Shown in pieces: positions 3,830 through 4,099 of a stretch of DNA of 12,547 nucleotides. The DNA lies in IMG/VR virus record IMGVR_UViG_3300037742_000189; one strand, given 5' to 3'. Every line of letters starts with the position of its first letter. Within the stretch, counting starts at the first letter, position 1. A program made the translations under genes and the position numbers. This DNA is from a virus. Below the pieces are notes generated by a model, which searched no databases, had not been told where the DNA came from, and saw nothing but the letters and a program-made list of their open reading frames with translations.

Positions 3830-4099
3830 ATGGTTGCTGCTGCCATTGGGTTGGCCGAGGCGGTCTTGAACATCACGTACGACGGGGAGCAGGGCGAGTT
3901 GCCCGATCCCGTTCTCTATGACGCCTCGGACGCAGACATCATTCGATGGGCGACGGAAGCCGTGCGCGGCGGTATCCCAGGGATCACCGCGAGGGCGGAC
4001 GCGAACCTGGCCGGCTACGTCGTCCAGCGATTTGGTTCGACAGCGGACCTGCCCAACCGCGTCGTGTGTCGACCGAAGACCGAGTACGGTGGACGATGA
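3830..4099 (+). CDS. small ubiquitin-like (beta-grasp?) protein, 89 aa, C-terminus …TEYGG-R
   Basis: Strong RBS (AAAGGAAGGTGGA) and ATG at 3830, 14 nt after the JAB stop. Ends with a Gly-Gly followed by a single Arg. Sits between a JAB peptidase gene and an E1-like gene. The Ubl fold itself is inferred from context and the GG tail, not from sequence similarity. Confidence 0.5.
   Translation: MVAAAIGLAEAVLNITYDGEQGELPDPVLYDASDADIIRWATEAVRGGIPGITARADANLAGYVVQRFGSTADLPNRVVCRPKTEYGGR

Follow-up and report, generated by a model that had tools for sequence, protein, structure and literature searches.

The window analysed here, a 12,547-nt stretch of viral DNA (IMG/VR record IMGVR_UViG_3300037742_000189), carries a group of five genes on one strand, in which the gene for a small ubiquitin-like protein (Ubl) lies between the genes for a JAB peptidase and an E1-like enzyme. 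The features referred to below are the following.

494-2419, plus strand: first gene of the module, coding for the vWA protein (641 aa), whose C-terminal vWA domain has an intact MIDAS motif
2482-3423, plus strand: gene for p313 (313 aa), an OB/coiled-coil module protein with invariant Cys259, Cys261 and Cys274
3435-3815, plus strand: gene for a JAB/JAMM metallopeptidase (126 aa) with a Prok-JAB match and the JAMM residues, the predicted tail-trimming enzyme
3830-4099, plus strand: Ubl precursor gene (89 aa), a conserved ORF with an AlphaFold2 beta-grasp model, from a family for which we found no earlier description
4070-4090, plus strand: the family hallmark R81-P-K-T-E-Y-G87, a conserved motif in which G87 (4088-4090) is the predicted mature C-terminus
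4091-4096, plus strand: predicted disposable tail (pro-peptide) G88-R89, at the place where variable, unrelated tails follow the near-invariant Gly
4096-4308, plus strand: probable facultative small gene (70 aa, Arg/Lys-rich), overlapping both the Ubl stop (ATGA) and the E1 start, and conserved as protein
4278-4883, plus strand: gene for a minimal E1-like adenylating enzyme (201 aa) with a ThiF match and MoeB similarity; an alternative start lies at 4242

The Ubl ORF runs from the ATG at 3830, directly preceded by the purine-rich sequence AAGGAAGGTGGAT, to the TGA at 4097-4099, and its product ends with R81-P-K-T-E-Y-G87-G88-R89. The stop codon overlaps a further ATG at 4096 as ATGA (4096-4099), and the JAB gene ends 14 nt upstream of the Ubl start. 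In the coordinates, the terminal residues, the ATGA overlap and the directly upstream JAB gene, the first-pass annotation of this DNA, made from the sequence alone, agrees well with our results. After a search of 1.84 billion proteins, the Ubl family was found to comprise 296 cluster representatives at E<=1e-3, with 11 close homologs of the ORF in the window, and the pN/pS ratio against the nearest relative is 0.21. The AlphaFold2 model, built on a 91-sequence alignment (pLDDT 91.5, pTM 0.80), shows the order strand, strand, helix, strand, strand of a beta-grasp fold, with pLDDT falling over the last residues, and its structural neighbours include the UBLs of NLE1, Ytm1 and WDR12. The Pfam scan of the window protein gave no match, none of the 91 family members matches a Ubl-type Pfam family (ThiS, MoaD, ubiquitin or prokaryotic Ubl) at E<=0.1, PHROGs and PADLOC gave no match, the family profile hit no PDB sequence at E<=10, and the sole match in the BFVD set of viral structures is the ortholog from phage Rctr197k; we thus regard the Ubl as a divergent beta-grasp family. 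A G+C content of 61% gives the window many long spurious ORFs, and together with the empty Pfam scan this could be taken to mean that 3830-4099 is one more chance ORF in GC-rich DNA and no functional gene. The 296 representatives, the pN/pS of 0.21, the confident fold prediction and the position of the gene, fixed in 141 loci, all speak against this; by the conservation data the idea is already refuted and its probability is negligible. The ORF is a genuine gene, above chance.

For the analysis of the gene neighbourhood, an HMM was built for each neighbour gene, and the loci scanned were 38 from IMG/VR, 11 from GTDB genomes and 80 from metagenomes, together with earlier metagenome contigs. The order vWA, p313, JAB, Ubl, E1 on one strand was found in all 141 oriented loci; of the 61 loci with at least 5.5 kb upstream, 58 have the genes for vWA and p313, and the E1 gene follows the Ubl gene in 47 of the 48 loci with at least 6 kb of downstream flank. 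Clustering of all the flanking ORFs gave no E2-like gene among the conserved neighbours and no further conserved gene of any kind, the only recurrent extra neighbours being homing endonucleases. The promoter scan found none, and terminators did not exceed what shuffled sequence gave as expectation. Huge phages carry the module, which lies on IMG/VR viral contigs of up to 618 kb. The only match to a GenBank phage is Rctr197k, a Caudoviricetes genome of 197 kb, in which the Ubl homolog has 166 aa, including a tail of 61 aa, and arrays of about 50 tRNA genes flank the module. Matches in GTDB were mostly contigs of Myxococcota and Gemmatimonadota MAGs, which hints at the host range, and included one isolate, the cultured myxobacterium Paraliomyxa miuraensis SMH-27-4, whose assembly carries the complete module (L054) on a 799-kb contig (NZ_JAOVZF010000163.1). 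Full-text literature searches found no description of the Ubl family or of the five-gene phage module, and neither Ubl nor ThiF is mentioned in a comparative review of jumbo phages (PMC7824862).

The first gene of the module is always that of the vWA protein, which gave VWA_2 and BatB-type vWA matches and keeps the MIDAS residues D443, S445, S447, T506 and D534 invariant in 20 sequences, behind an N-terminal region of about 430 residues with no recognised fold. The nearby tRNA genes and the major vault protein gene described below suggested a relative of Ro60/TROVE, but no TROVE/Ro60 match was obtained in a Pfam scan at E<=0.1 or in PDB sequence searches. The most conserved module protein is p313, for which over 800 homologs of 54-84% identity were found, on contigs of up to 659 kb. 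Its model (pLDDT 86) consists of a tandem OB-like beta domain, a 45-residue helix and a small a/b domain, the last with invariant Cys259, Cys261 and Cys274 and a near-invariant His that possibly form a zinc site; p313 has no UBC similarity.

The E1 gene matches Pfam ThiF (E 1.9e-21), and from homology the ATG at 4278 (MLQRIVVVGVGALGS) is a likelier start than 4242. The family is minimal, with 193-213 aa and a single ThiF domain; its profile hits MoeB best (3.8e-17), followed by ThiF, Uba4, TcdA, SAE2 and UBA5, and the best PADLOC match is to the Cap2 'E1-E2' models (1.8e-10), covering the E1 half only. The N-terminal segment of the MoeB/ThiF type and the zinc CxxC pairs are missing, the alignment beginning at MoeB residue 33. 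Invariant in 28 sequences are the GxGxxG loop (G9, G11, G14), D40, D42, K63, D103, D106 and C158, and in the alignment Cys158 (ATCEDG) falls on the Cys of MoeB ALTCVEAG, that is, on the position of the active-site-loop cysteine. From these residues we infer adenylation of G87 and formation of a thioester on C158. The JAB gene gave a match to Pfam Prok-JAB just above the cut-off (E 9e-6, 26 bits against 25) and weak PADLOC matches to the CBASS Cap3-type JAB models. Its JAMM motif E...HxH...S..D is represented by E2, H49, H51, S60 and D63, retained in 95% or more of the 45 sequences compared.

As to the C-terminus of the Ubl, the first alignment showed an invariant block R-x-K-T-x-[F/Y]-G, and RPKTx[F/Y]G was found in every locus scanned. 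Among 155 representatives the motif counts are R 150, P 148, K 145, T 130, F/Y 145 (F 125, Y 20) and G 153, with P, A or E between T and the aromatic residue. The family hallmark is a single near-invariant Gly and not a di-glycine: the residue before this Gly is F or Y in the 145 members just counted, and a second Gly follows it in 25, while the Gly itself, kept in all but two members, lies on or can be exposed at the end of a segment with low terminal pLDDT, as expected of a flexible tail. What follows the Gly varies in both identity and length, the outcome for which the first-pass annotation had suggested an ortholog alignment. In the first alignment the residues after it are GR, GL, nothing, GRGA, FQYSVC, GIEA, RG, LIN, S, S, GR and G; among the 155 representatives the first such residue is most often A (28) or G (25), then S (13) or V (10), with a scatter of others in the rest, and 14 members have no residue there. 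The tails range from 0 to about 135 aa and are unrelated to one another in sequence (no residue in 14 members, one in 44, 2-5 in 38, 6-20 in 7 and more than 20 in 52). About one third of the family are thus fusions with 21-135 unrelated residues after the Gly (P0014-P0162; L007, which is Rctr197k_224, L033, L036 and L038). Several of these long tails are zinc-ribbon-like with CxxC...CxxC spacing and one is a winged-helix HTH; such fusions recall the ubiquitin-ribosomal protein fusions of eukaryotes.

This register bears on the claim, made before the family was aligned, that the window protein carries a one-residue Arg cap after a di-glycine. Since the invariant Gly of the family falls on G87, the cap is most simply 'GR', and the earlier register was off by one; G88 is not conserved, the first tail position accepting many different residues across the family. 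If the functional terminus were instead G87-G88, with Arg89 alone removed, one could point to the GG that the window protein (GGR) and a 76%-identical relative (GGL) do carry, to Gly as the second commonest residue after the invariant one, and to the family member P0012, which ends exactly with ...EFGG. Against this, Gly occupies the first tail position in 16% of members, the other 84% having another residue or nothing there; a 79%-identical ortholog (L003) stops at the G87 position with ...TAFG; every module lacking the JAB gene ends with ...PFG and none with ...GG; and a G87 terminus would leave four residues, T-E-Y-G, beyond the last modelled strand (77-82), which is about the length of the tail of ubiquitin. 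We consider a G87-G88 terminus unlikely. The premise that an active Ubl needs a free GG is also contradicted by the Atg8 family, whose members have aromatic-Gly termini with short removable tails (...FG-R in yeast, ...YG-L in GABARAP), so that a free GG is not required for E1 activation.

The JAB encoded directly upstream is the predicted enzyme of tail removal. We compared the presence of the JAB gene with that of a Ubl tail in 86 distinct loci in which the interval from p313 to Ubl is fully visible; L126 and L128 have the very same Ubl as L055 and were counted together with it. The counts are as follows.

JAB present, Ubl tail present: 74 loci
JAB present, Ubl tail absent: 8 loci
JAB absent, Ubl tail absent: 4 loci
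JAB absent, Ubl tail present: 0 loci

In the loci without JAB, the Ubl gene starts 39-180 nt after p313 and its product ends with ...RPKTPFG. These loci belong to three lineages (L053; L055 and L058; L114), which are 57-67% identical to one another and each 71-80% identical to tailed relatives, the latter having JAB wherever the upstream region is within the contig. The divergence of the lineages, each with its own JAB-bearing tailed relatives, argues for three separate losses of JAB. By our own calculation, coincidence would put every one of the four JAB-less loci in the tail-less group of 12 with a probability of about 2e-4, or of about 3e-3 when counted as three events. Judging from these gene patterns, JAB can evidently be lost only where the gene already encodes the mature end, as expected if the indispensable job of JAB is removal of the tail. 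The proposal of the first-pass annotation, that JAB trims the Ubl and E1 then adenylates it, is in this respect supported, with no tailed Ubl gene lacking JAB against 74 having it; the part that fits less well is the nature of the residues removed, which by the family register would be GR and not R alone.

It could be argued that nothing is removed, the tail staying in place and RPKTxFG serving as a binding epitope, for instance for the vWA MIDAS or for p313, while JAB and E1 act elsewhere. Cleavage is here a prediction from comparative data, one third of the family are longer proteins with an N-terminal Ubl domain, and the UBLs of NLE1, Ytm1 and WDR12, named above as structural neighbours, bind a MIDAS domain without being conjugated. 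Hypervariable sequence of any length behind a near-invariant Gly is, however, the mark of a processing site and not of an internal epitope; the linkage to E1, whose sole known substrates are C-terminal carboxylates, is strict; and JAB is missing only where no tail is encoded. We hold retention of the tail to be very improbable.

The mechanism in which a JAB trims behind a conserved Gly and E1 adenylation follows is known from Bil and from the Ub/Rpn11 pair of Caldiarchaeum, with other proteases in place of the JAB for Atg8 and Ufm1. Among the closest known systems is Bil, in which BilC was shown biochemically to cleave BilA between the conserved Gly97 and Ala98, the BilA tail behind the Gly having a length of one residue in E. 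aridi and of as many as nine in other cases (PMC10557695). Both systems share the single conserved C-terminal Gly, the short variable tail and a JAB in the same operon, which in Bil trims before E1 adenylation and in the phage module is predicted to do so from a strong comparative signal. Bil is, however, a bacterial antiphage defence operon with an E2 (BilB) and a large E1 of IAD-AAD-CYS architecture (BilD) but without vWA and p313, whereas the present module is phage-borne, has no detected E2 and encodes an E1 of the single ThiF-domain type described above, and BilA and the phage Ubl are families unrelated at the sequence level. Owing to the missing E2 and the different E1 architecture, the phage module is not Bil. 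In type I Bub, a functional Ubl arises when BubCD, a fusion of JAB peptidase and E1, cleaves BubAB, a fusion of Ubl and E2 (PMC11601596). This removal of a long polypeptide parallels the third of the phage family with 21-135-aa tails and makes such members easy to accept, although the partner fused in Bub is a conserved E2 with oxyester chemistry and the phage tails are mutually unrelated. Type II CBASS resembles the module in the matches of E1 to Cap2 and, weakly, of JAB to Cap3-type models; however, the phage module has no E2 domain, CD-NTase or effector, and its substrate is a dedicated Ubl. The module is not CBASS.

In enzyme composition the module is similar to the archaeal SAMP/UbaA/HvJAMM1 and Thermus TtuB/TtuC/TtuD systems, which combine a beta-grasp Ubl, a MoeB-like single-domain E1 with an active-site-loop Cys and a JAMM peptidase, and work without E2. 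The Ubls of these systems end in GG, are generally tail-less and double as sulfur carriers, and their genes are cellular housekeeping genes that, unlike those of the phage module, have no fixed place in an operon beside genes for vWA and OB proteins. Among eukaryotic systems, Atg8/LC3/GABARAP with Atg4 and Ufm1 with UfSP have an aromatic-Gly or Val-Gly mature end from which a short variable tail is removed. The Atg8 and GABARAP termini given above resemble the ...EYG-GR of the window Ubl, a likeness of tail logic only and not of ancestry; the Atg8 system is eukaryotic, uses a Cys protease in place of a JAB, needs an E2 (Atg3) and has a lipid as target. The SAMP1/HvJAMM1 pair is dealt with in PMC4443979, and PMC6043591 and PMC5654768 describe an operon-encoded JAMM peptidase (Rpn11) of Caldiarchaeum subterraneum that processes the Ub precursor. 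The Caldiarchaeum system is archaeal and chromosomal and, unlike the phage module, has an E2, a RING E3 and true sequence similarity to ubiquitin. The vWA-linked Ubl systems of PMC7159879, which include MoxR or FtsH, an E2 and a RING E3, differ from the phage module in gene content and in their bacterial setting.

Taking these lines together, we propose the following pathway, to which as a whole we assign a probability of roughly 70%. The ORF 3830-4099 would encode the precursor of a beta-grasp Ubl of a family carried by huge tailed phages, in which translation continues past the motif Gly, the extra stretch being here Gly88-Arg89. Comparative genomics and the Bil precedent indicate that JAB most likely cuts after Gly87; the conserved catalytic residues of the minimal MoeB/ThiF-like E1 suggest that the freed Gly carboxylate is then adenylated, and that the Ubl probably moves to E1 Cys158 as a thioester. 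The conserved neighbourhood contains no E2, which favours E2-independent transfer, and the Ubl is probably passed on as in SAMP/UbaA or TtuB/TtuC. The vWA MIDAS protein and p313 are the best candidates for an adaptor or a target, a speculative assignment.

The E1 could instead serve a sulfur carrier like ThiS, MoaD or TtuB, the Gly thiocarboxylate of the Ubl giving its sulfur to a cofactor or a tRNA base with no conjugation to protein. The closest solved relatives of the E1 are MoeB, ThiF and Uba4, no E2 was found, many tRNA genes adjoin the module in these phages, and one locus has a gene of the DsrC/TusE family (sulfur relay) about 1 kb downstream of E1 (L004, 7562-7942). The QbsE/QbsD pair even offers a precedent for JAB trimming of a sulfur carrier, in that QbsE has residues after its GG that are removed by the JAB QbsD; with ThiS/MoaD it shares with the phage module a MoeB/ThiF-like E1. 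Bearing on the same question, L006 is an isolated case of a module flanked by radical-SAM genes. Nevertheless, the conserved module contains no rhodanese, cysteine desulfurase, PP-loop thiolase or synthase partner, and none of the sulfur donor or acceptor enzymes looked for (rhodanese, ThiG, MoaE, TtuA, CysM) is linked to it. The search of the 91 members gave no ThiS/MoaD match, the invariably linked vWA protein and p313 have no role in such a pathway, and the residue before the terminal Gly, to our knowledge near-universally Gly in sulfur carriers, is here a bulky aromatic. As it has neither a conserved GG nor a profile match, and no linked partner for sulfur transfer or of the synthase type, the phage Ubl falls outside the ThiS/MoaD class, and a carrier of sulfur is quite unlikely. 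Returning to the trimmed and E1-activated Ubl, we raise tentatively, at somewhat less than even odds, a wider proposal: that huge tailed phages carry their own compact E2-less conjugation module, which would tag phage or host proteins in infection as a viral counterpart of Bil, Bub and CBASS, with the vWA protein and p313 as a new substrate-selecting or ligase-like component.

Prokaryotic Ubl conjugation has so far been characterised in cellular settings, namely Bil, Bub, type II CBASS, archaeal SAMPs and the sulfur-carrier pathways, and the first three are bacterial systems for which antiphage defence is shown or proposed. Here Ubl, JAB and E1 stand on the virus side, within a module of five genes that is kept in huge phages of many environments, and the Ubl belongs to a family absent from Pfam, PHROGs and PADLOC. 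If the module conjugates proteins, it would offer a minimal E2-free system for the study of how a Ubl reaches its targets, and one would then ask whether giant phages modify their own virion and assembly proteins or the defence proteins of the host. The comparative data give a concrete prediction, cleavage after G87 with loss of Gly-Arg, and the Paraliomyxa miuraensis assembly with the module may provide an experimental entry point.

The frame 4096-4308, which the first-pass annotation regarded as spurious and counted as 71 aa, is 70 aa long and probably a real facultative small gene. It is missing from most loci, but in L012, L002, L008, L009 and L062 it is open and similar, with the same stop-start overlap with the Ubl gene and the shared motifs ERQGNL and VAEIxPW[LM]L[EQ]HR; against L012 the frame is kept through indels of one and two codons, with pN/pS of 0.43-0.47. 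In this sub-clade the codons of the Ubl tail double as the start region of the 70-aa gene, which fits a tail without sequence constraint of its own. The spacer between Ubl and E1, with a median length of 488 nt and extremes of an overlap and 5.5 kb, is a hot spot of insertion, in which we observed HNH and LAGLIDADG homing endonucleases, an ORF family of 207-210 aa and other facultative genes (the interval in L003, L004/L005, L010/L011 and many IMG/VR loci).

In the window, the genes for tRNA-Met(CAT) (5250-5326, plus strand) and tRNA-Arg(ACG) (5513-5584, plus strand) and for an HNH endonuclease (5627-6172, minus strand) lie shortly downstream of the module. They are followed by a gene at 6172-7479 (minus strand) for a 435-aa protein with an N-terminal coiled coil, the C-terminus of which gave a weak GH5 cellulase-like match (Pfam E 8e-4, below the cut-off). 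Divergent to it, at 7467-9974 (plus strand), lies the gene for an 835-aa homolog of the eukaryotic major vault protein (MVP_shoulder 6.7e-29, Vault_3 5.6e-9, Band_7 5e-6), which is found a few kb after E1 in a phage-like context in only five of the fetched loci, the window itself, L002 (11939-14434), L010 (7430-9991), L011 and L063.
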